A stretch of DNA of 54,126 nt. Source: Candidatus Angelobacter sp. (lineage in GTDB: Bacteria > Acidobacteriota > Terriglobia > Terriglobales > Acidobacteriaceae). The DNA lies in the NCBI GenBank assembly GCA_035762225.1, contig DASTPO010000446.1, positions 1 to 54,126 on the forward strand, read 5' to 3'. The notes under the pieces were generated by a model. It was not told where the DNA came from. It was given only the letters and a program-made list of their open reading frames with translations, and did no database searches. The position numbers and the translations under genes were made by a program. Of this stretch, positions 34,491 to 48,399 are shown in pieces. How positions within the stretch are numbered: position 1 is the stretch's first letter; each line of letters begins with the position of its first letter.

Positions 34491-34946
34491 CTATTTAGCC
34501 GCGAATGCACGCGAATGAACACGAATTCCTTTATTGCTATTCTCAAAAACAAACCGTTTGAAATGAGGCTTGGGGCCGAAGTTGAGCAGAAGACCTACTT
34601 CAATATCGGTTGCACGCAGATAATTCAGGACTTGGGCCTCGTGTGACGGGTCAAGCACACGGACAGCTTTTAGTTCAAGCAGGACTACATTATTTACGAC
34701 GAGATCAGCCTTGTATTCGCCGATTACTCTGCCACGAAACCAAATCGGCGTGGCGATTTGTCGCGTGACACTCAATCCTGCTTCGGTCAGGCCGACGTAC
34801 AGAGCTTCTTCGTACACAGCTTCGAGAAATCCATGCCCCAACTCGTTATACACCGAATAGAAAATGCCGACGATTTGATGACACAAATCCCAATGCTTTC
34901 TTTCGCGTTCATTCGCGTCAATTCGCGGCTGATCCGTGGTTCTCAC
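34491..34946 (-). CDS. GxxExxY-family protein (PD-(D/E)xK-like), inserted between pyrB and pyrC
   Basis: Contains ...GHGFLEAVYEEAL... (the GxxExxY motif) and ...DLVVNNVVLLELK.... The preferred start is a GTG overlapping the pyrB stop (GTGA). The stop lies 3 nt before the pyrC start. Both protein ends (DANERE..., ...IRVHSRAFAAK) are encoded by inverted repeat arms at 34904-34929 and 34498-34526. Confidence 0.75.
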   Translation of the reverse strand: MRTTDQPRIDANERERKHWDLCHQIVGIFYSVYNELGHGFLEAVYEEALYVGLTEAGLSVTRQIATPIWFRGRVIGEYKADLVVNNVVLLELKAVRVLDPSHEAQVLNYLRATDIEVGLLLNFGPKPHFKRFVFENSNKGIRVHSRAFAAK

Positions 34947-35848
34947 GCCACCCCCAGGCACGACGCCAGGATTGCCATCCGGACGTAAACCCCGTTCTGT
35001 ACCTGTTCTTCAATCACGGCCTGGGGCCCGTCGGCAACCTCGCTTTGGATTTCCATACCGCGAATCATGGGTCCGGGATGCATCACCAGAGCGTCATGTT
35101 TCGCCAGTTTCAGGCGCTCCGCGGTGAGCTGGTAGTGCGCCACGTAAGCATCTGCATCCAGCTTCAGGCCGGCCAGCCGTTCCTTTTGGACGCGCAGCAT
35201 CATCACCACGTCGGCTTTGCGGACGCCTTCTTCCAGATGGCGCGTAACTTTCACTCCGGGGGCCAGCGACGCCGCATAGTCAGGCAGCAGCTCCGGCGGA
35301 CCACAGAGCACAACCTGAGCGCCGAACTTTGCCAGCAGATGAACGTTGGACCGTACCACGCGGCTGTGCTTGATATCGCCGATCATGGTAACGCGCAATC
35401 CCTTCAGCGATTTCTTGTGGCGCAGAATGGTGTAGGCATCGAGCAGGCCCTGTGACGGATGCTCATGCATGCCGTCACCGGCGTTGATGATGGGAATCTT
35501 CAGCGAGCGTGCCAGCACATGCGGAGCGCCGGAGGAGGGATGGCGCACGACGATGCAATCCGCGCCCAGCGCCTGCAGGGTCTTGCCGGTATCCACCAGC
35601 GATTCGCCCTTTTCAATGCTTGAAGCCGTGGCGCTGATCAGCGAGGTATGCGTTCCCAGCATTTTGGCGGCAAACTCAAAAGAGACACGCGTCCGCGTGG
35701 AAGACTCATAGAACAGCAGAGCAATGCGTTTTCCCCTCAGCATGGGCCGGGGCGGTCGGGAGTGCATACGGCGGGCCAGCCGGAGGAAAGAGGTTATTTC
35801 ATCTGCCGAGAGGCGCTCGAGTTCGAGTAACGAACGGGTGCGAGCCAT
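34943..35848 (-). CDS. pyrB: Aspartate carbamoyltransferase catalytic subunit
   Basis: STRTR, HPSQ and HPGP motifs, about 300 aa. Confidence 0.92.
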   Translation of the reverse strand: MARTRSLLELERLSADEITSFLRLARRMHSRPPRPMLRGKRIALLFYESSTRTRVSFEFAAKMLGTHTSLISATASSIEKGESLVDTGKTLQALGADCIVVRHPSSGAPHVLARSLKIPIINAGDGMHEHPSQGLLDAYTILRHKKSLKGLRVTMIGDIKHSRVVRSNVHLLAKFGAQVVLCGPPELLPDYAASLAPGVKVTRHLEEGVRKADVVMMLRVQKERLAGLKLDADAYVAHYQLTAERLKLAKHDALVMHPGPMIRGMEIQSEVADGPQAVIEEQVQNGVYVRMAILASCLGVA

Positions 35849-38996: not shown

Positions 38997-39371
38997 TCAG
39001 AAACCTTTCAACAAATTCTTCAGCGAAGCAAGCAGGGCCTGGGGATCGTGATCTGAGACCACGATGTCCACGCCTGCCGGCACCGTATGGCCGATGATCT
39101 TTCCCCGCACCACCAGAATCACGCACAGACTATTGCGGATCATCTTGAGTGACTGGGCCACAGACCAGCCTTCAGTCTGGATGAAATGCTCCTGGTCCAG
39201 CACTACGGCATCCACGTGGTTGTTGACGCAGATAGCGACAGCGTGGTCCGGCGTGAACGACAGAGTCAACCGATAGCCCGATGCCTTCAGCACCTTGGCA
39301 GCCTGGCTATGACGGCGGTCGGCCAGCAACAAAATGGTTGCGGACTTAGGTTTCATGGCTCTGCGAATCAC
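38997..39371 (-). CDS. Stand-alone degenerate (pseudo-receiver-like) CheY-fold protein, last gene of the kai operon
   Basis: Spacing fits a (beta-alpha)5 receiver. Beta1 reads [10 protein letters not shown] and beta3 reads VDAVVLDQE. Beta4 reads CVILVVRGK (no T/S), and no beta5 K-P is seen. A GTG start overlaps the kaiB stop (GTGA); an alternative ATG lies at 39356. Confidence 0.6.
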
Positions 39372-39739
39372 CGCCAGCTTCCCGTGGGGCGGAGATCAAG
39401 GCCCACCAGCACTCGCTCTGTGTTGGACAAATCGCCAATGATCTTTTTCACCGGTGTTGGCAGGCGCCGGACCAGGGTTGGTACAGCGACAATCTGGTCG
39501 CCACGGGCCAGAGTGGGCCTCTCCAGAAGATCGACTACCTGAATCTTGTAGACGCCATGTAAGTGCTCCTCGCAAAGGTTCTTGAGGTTTTCAAAAGCTC
39601 GGATCGAAGTCGGCGTCATGCCGGCGACGTAGAGCCGCAGTTCCCACAACGGAGGCTTAAACGGGCGGACCTTTTGTCCGTTCCTTCCCGCGGCTTTCGC
39701 CAAGCGACCCGATTTTCCTGAGTCCTTTCTAGTTGCCAT
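39368..39739 (-). CDS. kaiB: Circadian clock protein KaiB homologue
   Basis: [83 protein letters not shown] aligns along its whole length with cyanobacterial KaiB. The ATG at 39739 (TTG at 39748 in the track) overlaps the kaiC 3' end. Confidence 0.9.
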
Positions 39740-41180
39740 GGATGTCAATTCCTTTGTTGCTCAAAGTAAAGGTGTGCATGCGGGTATCGTGCGACATACC
39801 TCGCGATTTCAAGAGATTCAGTGTTCTTACGCGTTCCGCTTCACCGTGGGGCACATCGCGCAACACCACCCAGCTGTCCATCAACGAGGAAATGCCCACG
39901 GCAGTTTCTTCAATCTCCAGGCCAAAAACCAGGTTGGTAAACATGGCGGTGATGTGTTTTAGCTTGAGGAAGTCAATCAGGCGGGTGAGCATCGCCTTCA
40001 CTGAGTTCAATTCCCCGGCGGATACAAGGTTGGTGATGGGGTCCACAATGACCACGCTGGGCCTGAAATCCTGAATCTCGTGATACATCACCGCCAGGTG
40101 GGATTCAAGTCCCGCGGCCGTGGGGCGAGTGGCATGGATCTTGAGCAGGCCCTTCTTGATCCATCTTTCCAGATTGATTCCCACTGAACTCATGTTGCGC
40201 AGGATCTGGCTGGGCGATTCCTCGTAAGCGAAATAAAGCGCGCGTTCGCCGCGAGAACACGCGGCGCTGGCAAAAGCCGCGGCGAAACTGGATTTGCCTG
40301 TTCCCGCCGTGCCGGTGATCAGGATGCTGCTGCCACGGAAAAACCCCTTCGCTCCCAGCATGGTATCCAGGCTCGGCACACCAGAGGGGAGTCGCTCAGT
40401 GGAAGCGGTATGGGTCAGTCCCATTGAGGTGATGGGGACAACCGAGATGCCTTCATTGTCGATCAGAAATGGATACTCGTTGGTGCCGTGCGAAGAGCCG
40501 CGATACTTCACCACACGCAGGCGCCGGGTGGAAATCTGTTCGTTGACGCGATGGTCAAGCACCAGAACGCAGTCAGCCACATACTCTTCCAGCCCGTAGC
40601 GCGTGAGGGCTTTGTCCCCCATCTCGGCCGTGACCACAGCGGTGACGCCGGCATCTTTCAGCCAGTGAAACAGCCGGCGCAGCTCGGCGCGAACGATGCC
40701 CTCATTCTTCAGCCCGAGAAAAAGAAGCTCAATGGTATCCAGCAGGACCCGTTTGGCCTTCACCTGGTCAATGGCCGCGCGCAGCCGGATAAAGAGCCCT
40801 TCCAGATCGTACTCGCCGGTTTCCTCAATCTGTTTGCGCTCGATGTGAACGTAATCAATCGCGATACGCTTGGCTTTGATCAGCGCGGGCAAGTCGTAAC
40901 CCAGCGAAGCCATGTTGGTTACCAGCTCTTCAGCGGTTTCTTCCAGCGCCAGGCAGACGCCGGGCTCGTTATACAAGAGTGCTCCGCGCACCAGGAATTC
41001 AAGGCCCAGCAGCGTCTTTCCTGCGCCGGGGCCGCCACAAACCAGAGCGGTGCGTCCCTTGGGAAAGCCGCCATGAGTAACCTGGTCAAGGCCGCGAATG
41101 CCGGTGGGAACTTTCTCCAGAGCCAGGTTGGCGCTCTCTGGAGGAGATGGTTTCTTCTTAAGGTTGGTACGTGCAGCCAT
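39729..41180 (-). CDS. kaiC: KaiC homologue (double RecA-like ATPase domains)
   Basis: CI: [30 protein letters not shown] plus LEETAEE. CII: [23 protein letters not shown] plus YEESPSQ. It is 483 aa and ends ...[11 protein letters not shown]. Confidence 0.92.
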
Positions 41181-41228
41181 AAATTTTGTTTTGCTCGCAA
41201 AAAAGATTTTTACAGACCGGGGAAATGC

Positions 41229-41672
41229 CTAACCATTATTGCCATCGCTGGCCGGCCCATTCCCATCCGAAGACTGCCGGCGTCCATCGACATGGGGATG
41301 TCCGTCGCGGAGTTTATGACCGTCGTGGTCCAGGACCCGCGTCAGCGCTTCCAGCAAAAGATGAGGATCGCCGAGCGGCCCAAGCTGCTCGTCGACCATC
41401 CCCGGGGCGAACTGTGTGCCTCCGGGATTGTTCAGGACCACGATCGGAACCGAACGCTCGAGGTTTTTGAGAGCGTGAGCCAGTTCGATCCGTTGTTTCG
41501 GGAGCATCGAGTCTCCAAACACTACAGCGTCGACCGGAAAGCTGGCGACGATGTGCATGGCCTCTTCCGGCCCGTCGACGGATATCACACGATAACCGGC
41601 GCGTTCCAGAATCAGGTTCCGCGTGACATGCGCGGGCGAAGGTTTGCTTACACAAAGGACAGTCCTTCCCAT
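41229..41672 (-). CDS. Stand-alone degenerate (pseudo-receiver-like) CheY-fold protein, first gene of the kai operon
   Basis: The ATG at 41672 (MGRTVLCVSKPS...) is preceded by GGAGAA. Beta1 lacks the DD pair, beta3 reads VDAVVFGDSMLP, and beta4 reads VPIVVLNNP (no T/S). The C-terminal tail is disordered and His/Gly/Asp-rich. Confidence 0.6.
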   Translation of the reverse strand: MGRTVLCVSKPSPAHVTRNLILERAGYRVISVDGPEEAMHIVASFPVDAVVFGDSMLPKQRIELAHALKNLERSVPIVVLNNPGGTQFAPGMVDEQLGPLGDPHLLLEALTRVLDHDGHKLRDGHPHVDGRRQSSDGNGPASDGNNG

Positions 41673-41690
41673 TGAGTTGCTTGTATTCTC

Positions 41691-41704
41691 CAAATTTAAA
41701 TTTG
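41691..41704. promoter_or_regulatory. Perfect 14-bp palindrome CAAATTTAAATTTG just upstream of the kai operon
   Basis: Self-complementary AT-only core in a GC-rich context, about 20 nt upstream of the preferred start of the first operon gene. Confidence 0.25.
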
Positions 41705-42006
41705 TTCGAGGGTGCTCGACTTGCTACCGCAGACACAAGCGGTTTTTCACCTGTCCTCGAACGAGCGCGATTACCGGACGCTTCGACAACTGCTGCAAGG
41801 GCCGCAACAGCCTAACCCTGGTGTTAAGCCAGTTCTTTTCAACGCTACCTAGGATGCAGCTTCACGCGATTTTGGATGCTTTTTTATGATCTAAAACAGA
41901 CGGTAACTGGTTGATTAAACATGCGCGACTCGCGGGCGTGAGCCGCTTCATTTTTTTAAAGCATCGGCAGCCGGAGAGGTGCTGCGTGCTTTTAAAAGGG
42001 CCTGAC

Positions 42007-42579
42007 TTATTGGGTGTCGTTGTGCTCCCAGGCGCGGACGTACACCAGGGCAAACTCAGAGCCTTTGCCGCTCGGCCGGATCGCCATGACGCGCTGGTTG
42101 TTTTCTGTGCCGACTTTCAACTCCTCTTTATACTCATGGCCCGCGGATTCATGGCCATTGCATGACACTTCAGCATCGTTATCGTGGTGATGGAAATTCA
42201 TGTTGAATCCGCCGGTGCAGTCGATCACATTGCCATATTTCCCCATCTCCTTACGATAGAAATTCATGATTTTGTCGGGGGCGTCATCGCTCTCAAACTT
42301 CAGCGCAACCACCTTGAGGCCGAACAGGGAGCTGGAGATATTTACGTTGGCACTATGCTCGTTGTCGCGAGTGTCTTTTTGCGATCGCGCGCCCGGATAC
42401 AAGGACAAGCCCGTATCCTTCACGTCAGAGTGGCCCTCGCGCACACTCAGGGAGCCGAACGGTGTCTTGATATCGACATCATCCTTCTTGCCATTTTCCT
42501 TATCGTGATGGATCGAGCAGCCTGCGGTGGCCAGGCAAAGCGCGGTCGCAAAGATCAGATTGAGCGAAGGCTTATTCAT
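42007..42579 (-). CDS. Lipoprotein, function unknown
   Basis: Starts at Met16 of the listed ORF: MNKPSLNLIFATALCLATAGCS (lipobox LATAGC). His/Asp-rich mature protein. Confidence 0.6.
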   Translation of the reverse strand: MNKPSLNLIFATALCLATAGCSIHHDKENGKKDDVDIKTPFGSLSVREGHSDVKDTGLSLYPGARSQKDTRDNEHSANVNISSSLFGLKVVALKFESDDAPDKIMNFYRKEMGKYGNVIDCTGGFNMNFHHHDNDAEVSCNGHESAGHEYKEELKVGTENNQRVMAIRPSGKGSEFALVYVRAWEHNDTQ

Positions 42580-42736
42580 GGACTCCTCCCGGATTGACGG
42601 CAAAGGGGATTGTGCCCCTGGCAAATAGTACGCCGGCCATCACAGAAAAGTTCCCTTGGTTACGCCGATTTTCCGGAGGCTTTGACTTTCTAGTGCCGCG
42701 GTAACCGGCGGGTCCTGGCGGCGTCTGCTGGTGAAG

Positions 42737-43965: not shown

Positions 43966-44164
43966 TATATGGTCTTGTGACGGCCTTCAAGCGGGGGGTA
44001 AACAAGCCGTGCATGGCTGGAGCATTATTAAAAGGCGGTTAAAGCTCTAACCGGCAGGCCGACCGCATAGGCCGTGTTTATAAAGTAACCCCCGAAATAG
44101 GCTTGTGGATGGCCGAAAAACAAGGCGGAACGCTGCAATAACGCAGGTTTGGGGAAATACGTTC

Positions 44165-44193
44165 TTTCAATTGGGGTTATTTTTACGTAAAAT
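44165..44193 (+). promoter_or_regulatory. Sigma70-like promoter candidate for the HD-GYP regulator gene
   Basis: TTTCAA, 17 nt spacer, TAAAAT. It lies inside the 5' part of the listed 44105 ORF, arguing that coding starts further downstream. Confidence 0.3.
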
Positions 44194-44266
44194 CACTACT
44201 CCCCCCTCTTCCACGCGAAGGGTTCAGCCGCATTCCCCCGAAAATCTGACGGCCCACGGGGTTTTT

Positions 44267-45367
44267 GTGCATTTAGACGACGATGATCCACAGCATCGCA
44301 AGGTACGAGAGTTGCTCGATACAACCCTCGCCCCGGCTCTATCCTCTCATCTTTCGATGGCACCCATATCGGAGAGGGCCAGGGAGGAGTATGGACGGCT
44401 CAAGCAGCGCGCTCCGCGGATCCTGGTTGTTGATGACAAGCTGGATACGTTATTGCTGCTGCGCGAGTTGTTGTCTTCCCGGGGCTATGAGATCCTGACC
44501 GCCACTGAGGCGGAAGAGGCAAAGCAGATTGTGCACCAGGAGCGGCCCGAATTGGTCCTGCTCGACGTAGTGATGCCCGGCAAGTCGGGCTACGAGCTTT
44601 GCCGCGAGTTGAAAGAGGATCCCATCACCCGCCTGATTCCGGTTGTGATGATCACCGGGCTATCCGATCGCGACGATCGTGTTCGCGGAATTGAAGCCGG
44701 CGCCGACGATTTCCTCAGTAAGCCGCTGTATCCGGAAGAGCTTTTTGCGCGCGTCAAGTCGCTGCTGAAGCTCAAAGAGTTTACTGACGAACTGGAAAAC
44801 GCCGAAGCCGTGCTGGTCGCATTGGCCCTAGGCATTGAATCGCGCGATCCCTATACAGGAAATCACTGCGAGCGGCTGGCGCGCTACGCCGCCGATCTCG
44901 GCCATCACATTGGACTGGACGGCGAAAGCATCATCGCACTGAAGCGCGGCGGCTATCTCCACGATCTGGGCAAAGTTTCCATTCCCGATGACATCTTAAA
45001 GAAGGGCACCAGGCTCACGGCTGAGGAGTGGGAAATCATGAAGCAACATCCGGAGATCGGTGAAGCGATCTGCCGGCCGTTGAAGTCCTTCCGTAGCGTG
45101 CTGCCCATTATCCGCCATCATCACGAGCATTGGGATGGCAGCGGTTATCCTGATCAGCTTCGGGGTTATGATATCCCGCTGCTGGCGCGCGTCCTCCAGG
45201 TGGTTGATGTGTATGACGCGTTGCGCACCACTCGCCCGTATAAACCTGCGCTCAGCCACGATGAGGCCAAGCGCACCATGCTGGATGAAGCCAACAAAGG
45301 ACTCTGGGACCCCAATCTAGTGCCTGAATTTTTCGCCATGCTCAAGAAAAAGGAACAGGCGGCATGA
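44267..45367 (+). CDS. Response regulator with an HD-GYP phosphodiesterase domain (RpfG-like)
   Basis: REC: ILVVDDKLD, LVLLDVVMPG, VVMITG, LSKP. HD-GYP: GNHCERLA, YLHDLGK, and HHHEHWDGSGYP. The start is uncertain: GTG 44267 has an upstream GGGG, ATG 44357 is an alternative, and the track start 44105 is unlikely. Confidence 0.85.
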   Translation: MHLDDDDPQHRKVRELLDTTLAPALSSHLSMAPISERAREEYGRLKQRAPRILVVDDKLDTLLLLRELLSSRGYEILTATEAEEAKQIVHQERPELVLLDVVMPGKSGYELCRELKEDPITRLIPVVMITGLSDRDDRVRGIEAGADDFLSKPLYPEELFARVKSLLKLKEFTDELENAEAVLVALALGIESRDPYTGNHCERLARYAADLGHHIGLDGESIIALKRGGYLHDLGKVSIPDDILKKGTRLTAEEWEIMKQHPEIGEAICRPLKSFRSVLPIIRHHHEHWDGSGYPDQLRGYDIPLLARVLQVVDVYDALRTTRPYKPALSHDEAKRTMLDEANKGLWDPNLVPEFFAMLKKKEQAA

Positions 45368-47341: not shown

Positions 47342-47587
47342 TCAGGAGGCCATCGCCCGAAGCGCTCGCGGATCTTTGGGTACCACCTGAACTCCCCGCT
47401 GCCGGTCATAGGCCAGGGTCAGCTGCGCCGAACATGGGCCACACAGCCAGAAATGTTCCACCCGGTTTGCGCTCTTTTTTTCGGGCGGCTGTTGCGAGGG
47501 CTGGGCGGCTTCCAGCATGAATATTTTGCCTTCTCGCAGATAAACCAACGGAGTTGAGCAGGAGGGGTTAGCGCATTTTGACAGCAT
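47342..47587 (-). CDS. Small Cys-pair (zinc-ribbon-like) hypothetical protein
   Basis: MLSKCANPSCSTPLVYLREGKIF...HFWLCGPCS. AAGGAG lies 8 nt upstream of the ATG at 47587. Confidence 0.5.
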   Translation of the reverse strand: MLSKCANPSCSTPLVYLREGKIFMLEAAQPSQQPPEKKSANRVEHFWLCGPCSAQLTLAYDRQRGVQVVPKDPRALRAMAS

Positions 47588-47734
47588 CAGCATTGCTCCT
47601 TGTTCCCCGCGGCAAAGTTCAGCCGTTGAATTCAAAAACCGGCATTTTCACTGGAAAAATAGATGCAAAGTTTTGCTGCCGGGATTGACGGAAATTTCCG
47701 GCTGCAAATATTTCTGAGAGTCGGACGGGGTTAC

Positions 47735-47833
47735 TCAGTTACCCGCAAGCGCCGGCAACAGCACCATTAACGCTGCAATCCAAAACCCCATCCAAATCAG
47801 CAGGTTTCTCGTTTCCGCCACATTCGAGTTCAT
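47735..47833 (-). CDS. Possible 32-aa single-TM peptide
   Basis: MNSNVAETRNLLIWMGFWIAALMVLLPALAGN. GGAGG lies about 9 nt upstream of the ATG. It is the 3' part of the listed 47735..48001 ORF, whose upstream part looks non-coding. The call is tentative. Confidence 0.3.
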   Translation of the reverse strand: MNSNVAETRNLLIWMGFWIAALMVLLPALAGN

Positions 47834-48000
47834 CAATGCGCCTCCGCTATCAAATACTTCGGTCAGAGAAGGTGCAAGCTGTACTCCATTTATGTAAGTG
47901 ATTGTAAATAAGAACTTTGTTTTGGTAATCCGCGATACTTTTGTGTCAAAAGTCGCCTGGAGAGTGTGGGCAATTACACACGTCCGCGGGGCGATCAGCA

Positions 48001-48399
48001 CTATTGGCGTGACTCGCCTTGGCCGAAAATTTCCTGCAATTTGGAAGAAAGGATCCTGACCGTAAACGGCTTCTGCACCAGAATAGTGCCGGGTTTGAGA
48101 ACCCCATCCGGCGCCAGGGAAGCGTCGGCATAGCCGGAGATGAACACCACTTTGATGTCAGGACGGCTTTGCAAAAGCTCTTCCGCGAGCGCTGGACCTG
48201 AGATTGGCTCCATCATCACGTCCGTCAGCAGAAGGTCGATTTTGCCCGGGAAGGCGGCAGCTACTTCTAATGCCTCAGTCCCATTGGCGGCAGAGAGCAT
48301 CTGGTATCCCAGTTGGCCGAGAAGATCGATGAGCACGTTGCGGAGGAAATCCTCGTCGTCTACCAGGAGAATCGTTTCTTTACCGCGCTGATAATCCAC
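48001..48399 (-). CDS. Stand-alone canonical response regulator receiver
   Basis: ILLVDDED, LLLTDVMMEP, VVFISGY and VQKPF give a complete D-D-D-S-K set. Confidence 0.85.
   Translation of the reverse strand: MDYQRGKETILLVDDEDFLRNVLIDLLGQLGYQMLSAANGTEALEVAAAFPGKIDLLLTDVMMEPISGPALAEELLQSRPDIKVVFISGYADASLAPDGVLKPGTILVQKPFTVRILSSKLQEIFGQGESRQ

Follow-up and report, generated by a model that had tools for sequence, protein, structure and literature searches.

A putative KaiA-independent timer module of Terriglobia acidobacteria: a tail-less KaiC2 and a KaiB encoded between two pseudo-receiver genes

KaiA-free KaiBC modules are widespread, and their regulation and readout have been worked out for very few of them. 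In the KaiBC hourglass of Rhodobacter sphaeroides (8DBA, 8DB3, 8FWJ), the C-terminal extension of KaiC (KaiC-RS) assembles into a coiled-coil dodecamer and thereby controls dephosphorylation; the delta-coil construct keeps the wild-type rates of autokinase activity and nucleotide exchange, and binding of KaiB makes its hexamer fall into monomers (PMC10076222). In the KaiA3-KaiB3-KaiC3 system of Synechocystis and some other bacteria, KaiA3 consists of a receiver domain and a KaiA-like domain and is encoded beside kaiB3 (PMC11372060). Furthermore, a two-hybrid assay has shown that KaiC of Pseudomonas putida interacts with the single-domain response regulator encoded next to it (bioRxiv 10.1101/2022.01.26.477890). 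Here we describe a minus-strand cluster of four genes, RRL1-kaiC-kaiB-RRL2, which lies between positions 38997 and 41693 of contig DASTPO010000446.1 from Candidatus Angelobacter sp. The whole stretch of 54,126 nucleotides (nt) that was analysed is called the window, RRL1 and RRL2 are our names for the receiver-like proteins on either side of kaiC-kaiB, and L-numbers are labels of related loci.

We consider this cluster to be a new variant of the KaiBC module. In the reading that we prefer, to which we give an even chance, an uncultured acidobacterium of the Terriglobia has on its chromosome this operon, which encodes a KaiA-independent KaiC2-KaiB phospho-switch together with two paralogous stand-alone pseudo-receivers. 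The role of RRL1 and RRL2 as new partners of a KaiA-free timer is plausible but unproven. The module is similar to that of R. sphaeroides in its Ser-Ser phosphosites, in having both Walker A motifs and both EE pairs, in the absence of KaiA and in the location of kaiB beside kaiC. However, KaiC-RS has 568 amino acids (aa) including the coil, whereas the KaiC analysed here has 483 aa and stops at the equivalent of residues 463-465 or so of KaiC-RS. It therefore resembles a still shorter, natural version of the delta-coil construct, to which two pseudo-receiver genes have been added. The four open reading frames (ORFs) are as tightly packed as the original prediction had described them: 48 nt separate RRL1 from kaiC, the ATG of kaiB is located 11 nt within the end of kaiC, and a GTGA overlap couples kaiB to RRL2. 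The end of the cluster had been placed at 41704, which is 11 nt past the start of the longest ORF (41693) and had to be corrected.

Regarding kaiC (39729..41180, minus strand, 483 aa), its product matches Pfam KaiC (PF06745) with 366 bits over two domains and NCBIfam NF006799 with 662 bits, above the cut-off of 408, while it stays below the cyanobacterial equivalog TIGR02655 (circ_KaiC), with 342 bits against a cut-off of 546. The nearest solved structures are those of R. sphaeroides KaiC (8DB3, 8DBA and 8FWI, around 554 bits), followed by Synechococcus elongatus KaiC with around 318 bits; the most similar KaiC of all (89%) comes from a Candidatus Angelobacter genome. Both Walker A loops and both EE pairs, already claimed before, are present in the sequence: GGPGAGKT and LEET in the CI domain, GTAGTGKS and YEES in the CII domain. 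The other peptide motifs quoted in the original prediction were found as well. The putative phosphosite pair, GISSLMD (Ser431-Ser432), aligns with S413/S414 of R. sphaeroides KaiC, which are the phosphosites of that protein (PMC10076222), and a Ser-Ser pair is typical of KaiC2 (PMC5520375). Judging from these residues and scores, the protein is a KaiC of the KaiC2 type, within the clock clade, with catalytic and phosphosite residues intact. The possibility of a RadA/Sms-like protein, against which the original prediction had warned, or of an archaeal single-domain KaiC, is ruled out by the double domain, by the score against NF006799 and by the 554 bits to KaiC-RS.

The most unusual part of this KaiC is its end. 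The alignment stops at residue 480 of 483, opposite residue 463 of the 568 residues of the R. sphaeroides chain and residue 480 of S. elongatus KaiC, and the protein itself ends about two residues past the latter, ahead of the A-loop (488-497). As the alignment finishes just after the CII core, the A-loop is missing, and so is the coiled-coil extension, which has about 100 aa. Of 95 related loci, 79 share this C-terminal end (0 or +1 aa), 13 had 8-12 extra residues, and in L104 the reading frame runs on for 36 aa, where a frameshift is possible. A long tail (+94 aa) appeared in a single one of these loci, the outgroup L038. The shared end in 79 loci and the overlapping start of kaiB rule out that the truncation is an artefact of assembly or a frameshift.

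The usual histidine kinase is also missing. Among the 44 window ORFs scanned we found neither a histidine kinase nor a KaiA domain, as had been predicted, and RRL2 occupies the position where the kaiCB clusters of other phyla have a histidine kinase. A KaiC2 clade variant without regulatory tail and without the usual kinase is real, and both features are additional to those of the original prediction. The only more distant locus recovered, L038 (binned as Bacteroidales, 60% KaiC identity), encodes a long-tailed KaiC of 568 aa, two tandem KaiB genes and a PAS-HisKA-HATPase histidine kinase, and no RRL. Since KaiC-RS and the L038 protein, which stand at about the same distance from the KaiC analysed here, each have a long tail, the tail-less, kinase-less and RRL-flanked state is most simply read as derived, on the basis of these two outgroups only.

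The gene kaiB (39368..39739, minus strand, ATG start, 123 aa; a TTG at 39748 is an alternative start) encodes a protein that scores 91.3 bits against Pfam KaiB (PF07689), where the gathering threshold is 27, and that is narrowly below the NCBIfam cyanobacterial equivalog NF006798 (106.4 against a cut-off of 110). Its residues 26-116 align with residues 3-92 of the cyanobacterial KaiB 1WWJ (101 bits), and it also aligns with 2QKE and with the KaiB of R. sphaeroides 8FWJ. The end-to-end alignment with cyanobacterial KaiB that had been proposed is correct for the domain, which by these alignments is a full KaiB domain, and it is preceded here by an N-terminal extension of about 30 aa that is basic and of low complexity (window 39650-39739, minus strand). 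The length of this extension varies among the relatives and reaches about 70 aa in L028 (6412-6897), where it is rich in K, T, S and G.

The two flanking genes are RRL1 (41229..41672, minus strand, 147 aa, P0001), with an ATG start at 41672 that is the one used by the database gene callers and a longer alternative from a TTG at 41693 (41229..41693), and RRL2 (38997..39371, minus strand), with a GTG start or else an ATG at 39356 that gives 119 aa (P0121), so that its length is 119-124 aa. Pfam recognises them poorly: RRL1 reaches 19.6 bits for Response_reg (PF00072), below the cut-off of 30.2, and RRL2 has no Response_reg match at E<=1, its match to PDE8A_N (25 bits) being below the cut-off of that family too. 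Nevertheless, the AlphaFold2 models built on alignments of homologues, with a mean predicted local distance difference test score (pLDDT) of 78 for RRL1 (around 90 in the core) and of 85 for RRL2, show in both cases a receiver-like (beta-alpha)5 fold with a loop in place of helix alpha4. In Foldseek both models match ordinary receivers such as PhoB, ArcA, KdpE and PorX with template modelling (TM) scores of about 0.75-0.85. Both proteins are therefore predicted to have receiver folds, which is what had been suspected from the spacing of their secondary structure. RRL1 differs from RRL2 in that its last 30 aa or so form a disordered C-terminal tail.

The two proteins are also similar to each other, as had been noticed: hhalign compares them with a probability of 94% (E = 1e-7), and among the window proteins the hidden Markov model of each RRL family scores the other RRL above the canonical receiver at 44105. 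By these comparisons RRL1 and RRL2 are paralogues, each being the closest to the other.

Profile alignments show that the active-site quintet of receivers, D12-D13-D57-T/S87-K109, is incomplete in both. RRL1 has S9-K10 at the first two positions, G53 where 3CZ5 and PorX have their acceptor Asp, D54 directly after it, N81 at the Thr/Ser position, where most of its homologues have Ser, and no Lys. RRL2 has A12-D13, D54 as acceptor, V83/R84 at the Thr/Ser position and S101 in place of Lys, which means that the equivalents of D13 and D57 are retained and those of D12, T87 and K109 are lost. The claim that both pockets are non-canonical is supported, RRL1 having Gly at the acceptor position and neither protein having the Lys; the correction needed is that RRL2 keeps the two Asp residues. 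As Lys and Thr/Ser are absent in both proteins, and the acceptor Asp is absent in RRL1 as well, a classical His-Asp phosphotransfer seems unlikely. The quintet and the Pfam scores rule out that RRL1 and RRL2 are ordinary response regulators. RRL1 as a cryptic KaiA or KaiA3 is ruled out too, because it has no KaiA Pfam match at E<=1 and its tail is about 30 disordered aa.

RRL2 belongs to a small family. Its profile found only 133 clusters at E<=1e-3 among 1.84 billion representative proteins, nearly all of them have a single domain and 110-160 aa, and the profile does not match ordinary response regulators. In 52 representatives of the family, the D57-equivalent is Asp in 42; at the D13-equivalent 24 have Asp and 6 have Glu. 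None of the 52 has Lys at the K109-equivalent or an acidic residue at the D12-equivalent, and the T87-equivalent is not conserved. Two other motifs are typical of these proteins, GW-S after beta3 (44 representatives) and GVD before beta5 (50 representatives). Judged by its conserved positions, this is a distinct receiver-derived family that has no conventional switch residues.

In comparison with the other systems, the likeness to KaiA3 is that a receiver-type protein is encoded beside kaiB and kaiC, KaiA3 acting on a non-standard KaiBC pair. However, KaiA3 has about 299 aa and a C-terminal KaiA-like four-helix bundle that drives the phosphorylation of KaiC3, whereas the RRLs are single-domain proteins of 119-147 aa; moreover, the KaiC analysed here is of the KaiC2 type, not of the KaiC3 type, and has no C-terminal segment of the sort that KaiA-type proteins bind. 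With the pseudo-receivers of KaiA and CikA the RRLs share a receiver fold with a defective pocket, used in those proteins for protein-protein contacts, and the absence of alpha4 from their models has been described for the pseudo-receiver of KaiA. Nevertheless, those are domains of larger proteins, and RRL2 still has the acceptor Asp. The KaiB-less KaiC-homologue systems of Pseudomonas likewise encode a small stand-alone receiver beside the KaiC homologue, but they have no KaiB, have a histidine kinase nearly always and have normal receivers, whereas here there is a KaiB, no kinase and degenerate receivers. A literature search on KaiC in Acidobacteria, or on 'kaiR', gave nothing relevant.

In order to follow the gene order, we used two surveys. 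A KaiC scan of the GTDB species genomes gave 38 loci, labelled Angelobacter, Terriglobia or Acidobacteriaceae save for a few bins labelled otherwise. A scan of metagenomes with the RRL2 profile gave 80 loci, all of them close relatives (61-78% identity), since the scan worked with back-translated patterns of the most conserved motifs. The order kaiC-kaiB-RRL2 was found in 33 of the 34 species loci with downstream DNA, and RRL1 is located upstream of kaiC in around 26 of 35. In the metagenome loci, KaiB is encoded directly upstream of RRL2 in 67 of 73 cases, KaiC is present in 27 of 30 and RRL1 in 23 of 26. The distance between the stop of kaiB and the start of RRL2 has a median of 9 nt over 107 loci. 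The neighbourhood check that had been proposed shows an order that is kept across the Terriglobia clade, and RRL2 accompanies kaiBC nearly always, although RRL1 is absent from several lineages, as detailed below.

How could such a module work? We propose that KaiC autophosphorylates constitutively, like the delta-coil construct of KaiC-RS, because it has no A-loop to bury. Phosphorylated KaiC would recruit KaiB to CI, which would lead to ATP hydrolysis and dephosphorylation, and the module would behave as an hourglass or as a switch of the energy state (ATP/ADP), not as a self-sustained clock. RRL2, co-produced with KaiB, may be a protein-protein adaptor that binds KaiB and/or KaiC in a state-dependent manner, by analogy with the receiver-type domains of CikA, KaiA and KaiA3, and it would either modulate the cycle or carry the output through sequestration. 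RRL1 would be an optional and more dispensable modulator of the same kind. More specifically, one of the RRLs might make up for the stabilisation of the hexamer that was once given by the coiled coil.

A much bolder proposal can be made on these lines, and we regard it as improbable: that the ancestral tail of KaiC2 (A-loop and coiled coil) and the downstream histidine kinase were both replaced by the two pseudo-receivers. RRL2, assisted by RRL1, would dock on KaiB-KaiC in a state-dependent manner, stabilise a tail-less hexamer that is labile to KaiB and export the timing by sequestration and not by His-Asp phosphotransfer, so that the four proteins would constitute a timer unlike KaiABC and KaiBC-RS.

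Among the other explanations, the one that survives best is that the module is not a daily timer but an ATPase system that signals stress or growth phase, as has been reported for the KaiC homologues of Legionella and Pseudomonas, with the RRLs as its signalling adaptors; we consider this possible, if somewhat doubtful. The host is a non-phototrophic soil acidobacterium, to go by the labels of its closest relatives, the phosphorylation of Pseudomonas KaiC tracks the age of the culture and not circadian cues (bioRxiv 10.1101/2022.01.26.477890), and the KaiC2 of Legionella is tied to the stress response (PMC5520375). However, a bona fide KaiB is encoded here, which is not the case in the Pseudomonas systems, and this KaiC is closest to that of R. 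sphaeroides, a proven hourglass. Furthermore, this explanation concerns the physiology and is compatible with the molecular wiring proposed above.

A second explanation, which we hold to be unlikely, although a little less so than the bolder proposal, is that the RRLs are mere neighbours: an acidobacterial receiver-derived family with a job independent of Kai, which stands beside kaiCB through collinear inheritance. Several observations favour it and weigh against the reading that we prefer. First, the clade is collinear over a neighbourhood of 12 kb (Na/Ca exchanger, GT2, the gene RR-HD-GYP for a response regulator fused to an HD-GYP-type domain, h215, FmdE, h205, the cluster, h216, pyrR and pyrB), therefore most of the synteny is inherited and not independently maintained, and the conserved order may be mostly plain vertical inheritance of a large block. 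Second, RRL2 is intact, with all its signature residues, at loci where kaiC and kaiB have been deleted: the order is h205-RRL2-h216 in L120, L121 and L123 and RRL1-RRL2 in L085, while L004-L006 have a partial RRL1, a KaiB remnant of 39 aa and RRL2; L110 also belongs to this group. Third, RRL1 has been lost repeatedly, being absent in L007, L029-L032 and L034, which represent several lineages; it has also diverged strongly in L028 and may be disrupted in L041. Fourth, seven RRL2 paralogues (43-55% identity) have ECH, UGSC, Crp-type regulator or DUF4097 genes as neighbours and never kai genes, where upstream DNA is present; this more distant context comes from seven single look-ups on short contigs. 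Two points from the proteins themselves weigh only against the reading that we prefer: RRL2, which keeps its acceptor Asp, may be phosphorylated to some degree, and the top Foldseek matches of both RRLs are ordinary receivers, the pseudo-receivers of KaiA and CikA giving no sequence match and not appearing among the top 50 structural matches.

Nevertheless, other data argue against RRLs that are mere neighbours. In more than 100 loci RRL2 either overlaps kaiB at start and stop or follows it after a gap of about 9 nt, which speaks for co-transcription and co-translation. In addition, kaiC-kaiB-RRL2 is retained as a unit in L028 and L034, that is, in two contexts that are otherwise unrelated to the common one, and in L028 a divergent RRL1-like gene is located directly upstream. 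RRL2 is moreover as conserved as KaiB and KaiC, with 65-80% identity among the relatives. In summary, the idea of a four-component timer made in the original prediction is partly supported: it has in its favour a conserved operon and genuine pseudo-receivers, and it has against it that RRL1 is missing from several lineages, that RRL2 persists without kaiCB and that its paralogues are found away from kai genes.

The weakest explanation, that RRL2 is a working atypical response regulator whose D54 obtains its phosphate from an unlinked histidine kinase or from acetyl phosphate and which feeds an environmental signal to KaiBC, perhaps in the same phosphorelay as the canonical receivers at 44105-45367 and 48001-48399, would agree with these two receivers and with the D57- and D13-equivalents kept by the window RRL2 and by the fractions of its family given above, but we consider it very unlikely in view of the family-wide state of the K109, T87 and D12 positions, the failure of RRL2 in Pfam Response_reg, the lack of a histidine kinase among the scanned ORFs and the absence of the RR-HD-GYP gene from the relocated clusters L028 and L034.

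Some observations on the related loci are worth adding. The deletions of kaiC and kaiB appear to be several and separate, at times they include RRL1, and the same flanking genes surround RRL2. In L028 (2459-3803), a paralogue from the RRL2 family, about 120 aa long, forms a divergent pair with a Crp-type helix-turn-helix regulator. This pair immediately precedes the RRL1-like-kaiC-kaiB-RRL2 cluster, downstream of which a GAF-SpoIIE (PP2C) phosphatase is encoded; the pairing of the paralogue with the Crp-type gene recurs on the unrelated contig L129.

Regarding the neighbouring genes in the window, the two canonical receivers had not been mentioned in the original prediction. The first one (44105..45367, plus strand) is a canonical receiver, with 98 bits for Response_reg, fused to an HD domain of the HD-GYP type; it lies 2.4 kb upstream of the cluster, with a GT2 glycosyltransferase gene after it. 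This RR-HD-GYP gene is syntenic across the clade, and its absence from the two relocated clusters leaves the idea that it is the dedicated output unsupported; we do not include it in the system. The second one (48001..48399, minus strand) is a canonical single-domain receiver of 132 aa (Response_reg 61 bits) with no kinase nearby, after which there are small unannotated ORFs at 47735-48001 and 47342-47635. Immediately upstream of the kai cluster, 42007-42624 (minus strand) encodes a protein of 205 aa that carries a lipoprotein-type signal (LATAGC) and matches nothing in Pfam; this gene is found at the same place in nearly all the relatives and about 2 kb upstream in L034. Further away, a PD-(D/E)XK nuclease-family gene (34491-34961, minus strand; PDDEXK_3, 135 bits) is located between the pyrB and dihydroorotase genes of a pyrimidine cluster.

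As for the non-coding parts, the spacer between RRL1 and kaiC (41181..41228, minus strand, 48 nt) contains an A-rich motif, TGCGAGCAAAAC, around 10 nt ahead of the kaiC ATG (window 41190-41205, minus strand). A semi-conserved motif similar to TG(C/T)GAG.AAAAC occupies the same position in around 20 related loci, and no Shine-Dalgarno-like sequence is evident at the start of kaiC; the A-rich motif may be a translation-initiation signal. Upstream of the four genes there is a single non-coding gap of appreciable size, the region before RRL1 (41694..42006, minus strand, 313 nt), which is presumed, from its location, to be the promoter region of the operon; a scan for consensus promoters found nothing convincing in it, and the consensus scan for promoters and terminators gave nothing usable. 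Rfam and tRNA scans of the window were both empty. Antisense to kaiC and RRL1 there is an ORF of 395 aa (40488-41675, plus strand), which we take to be a chance ORF of G+C-rich sequence and not a gene.

Thus, this clade appears to have lost the C-terminal coiled coil, which is the sole regulatory element worked out for KaiC2, as well as the usual kinase output, and the losses of tail and kinase coincide with the presence of two pseudo-receiver genes that are conserved. As the four proteins are all small and soluble, direct testing in vitro is feasible. If the proposed role of RRL1 and RRL2 is true, they would be a new class of accessory proteins for Kai timers, and the biology of these timers would be extended to the abundant soil Acidobacteriota.

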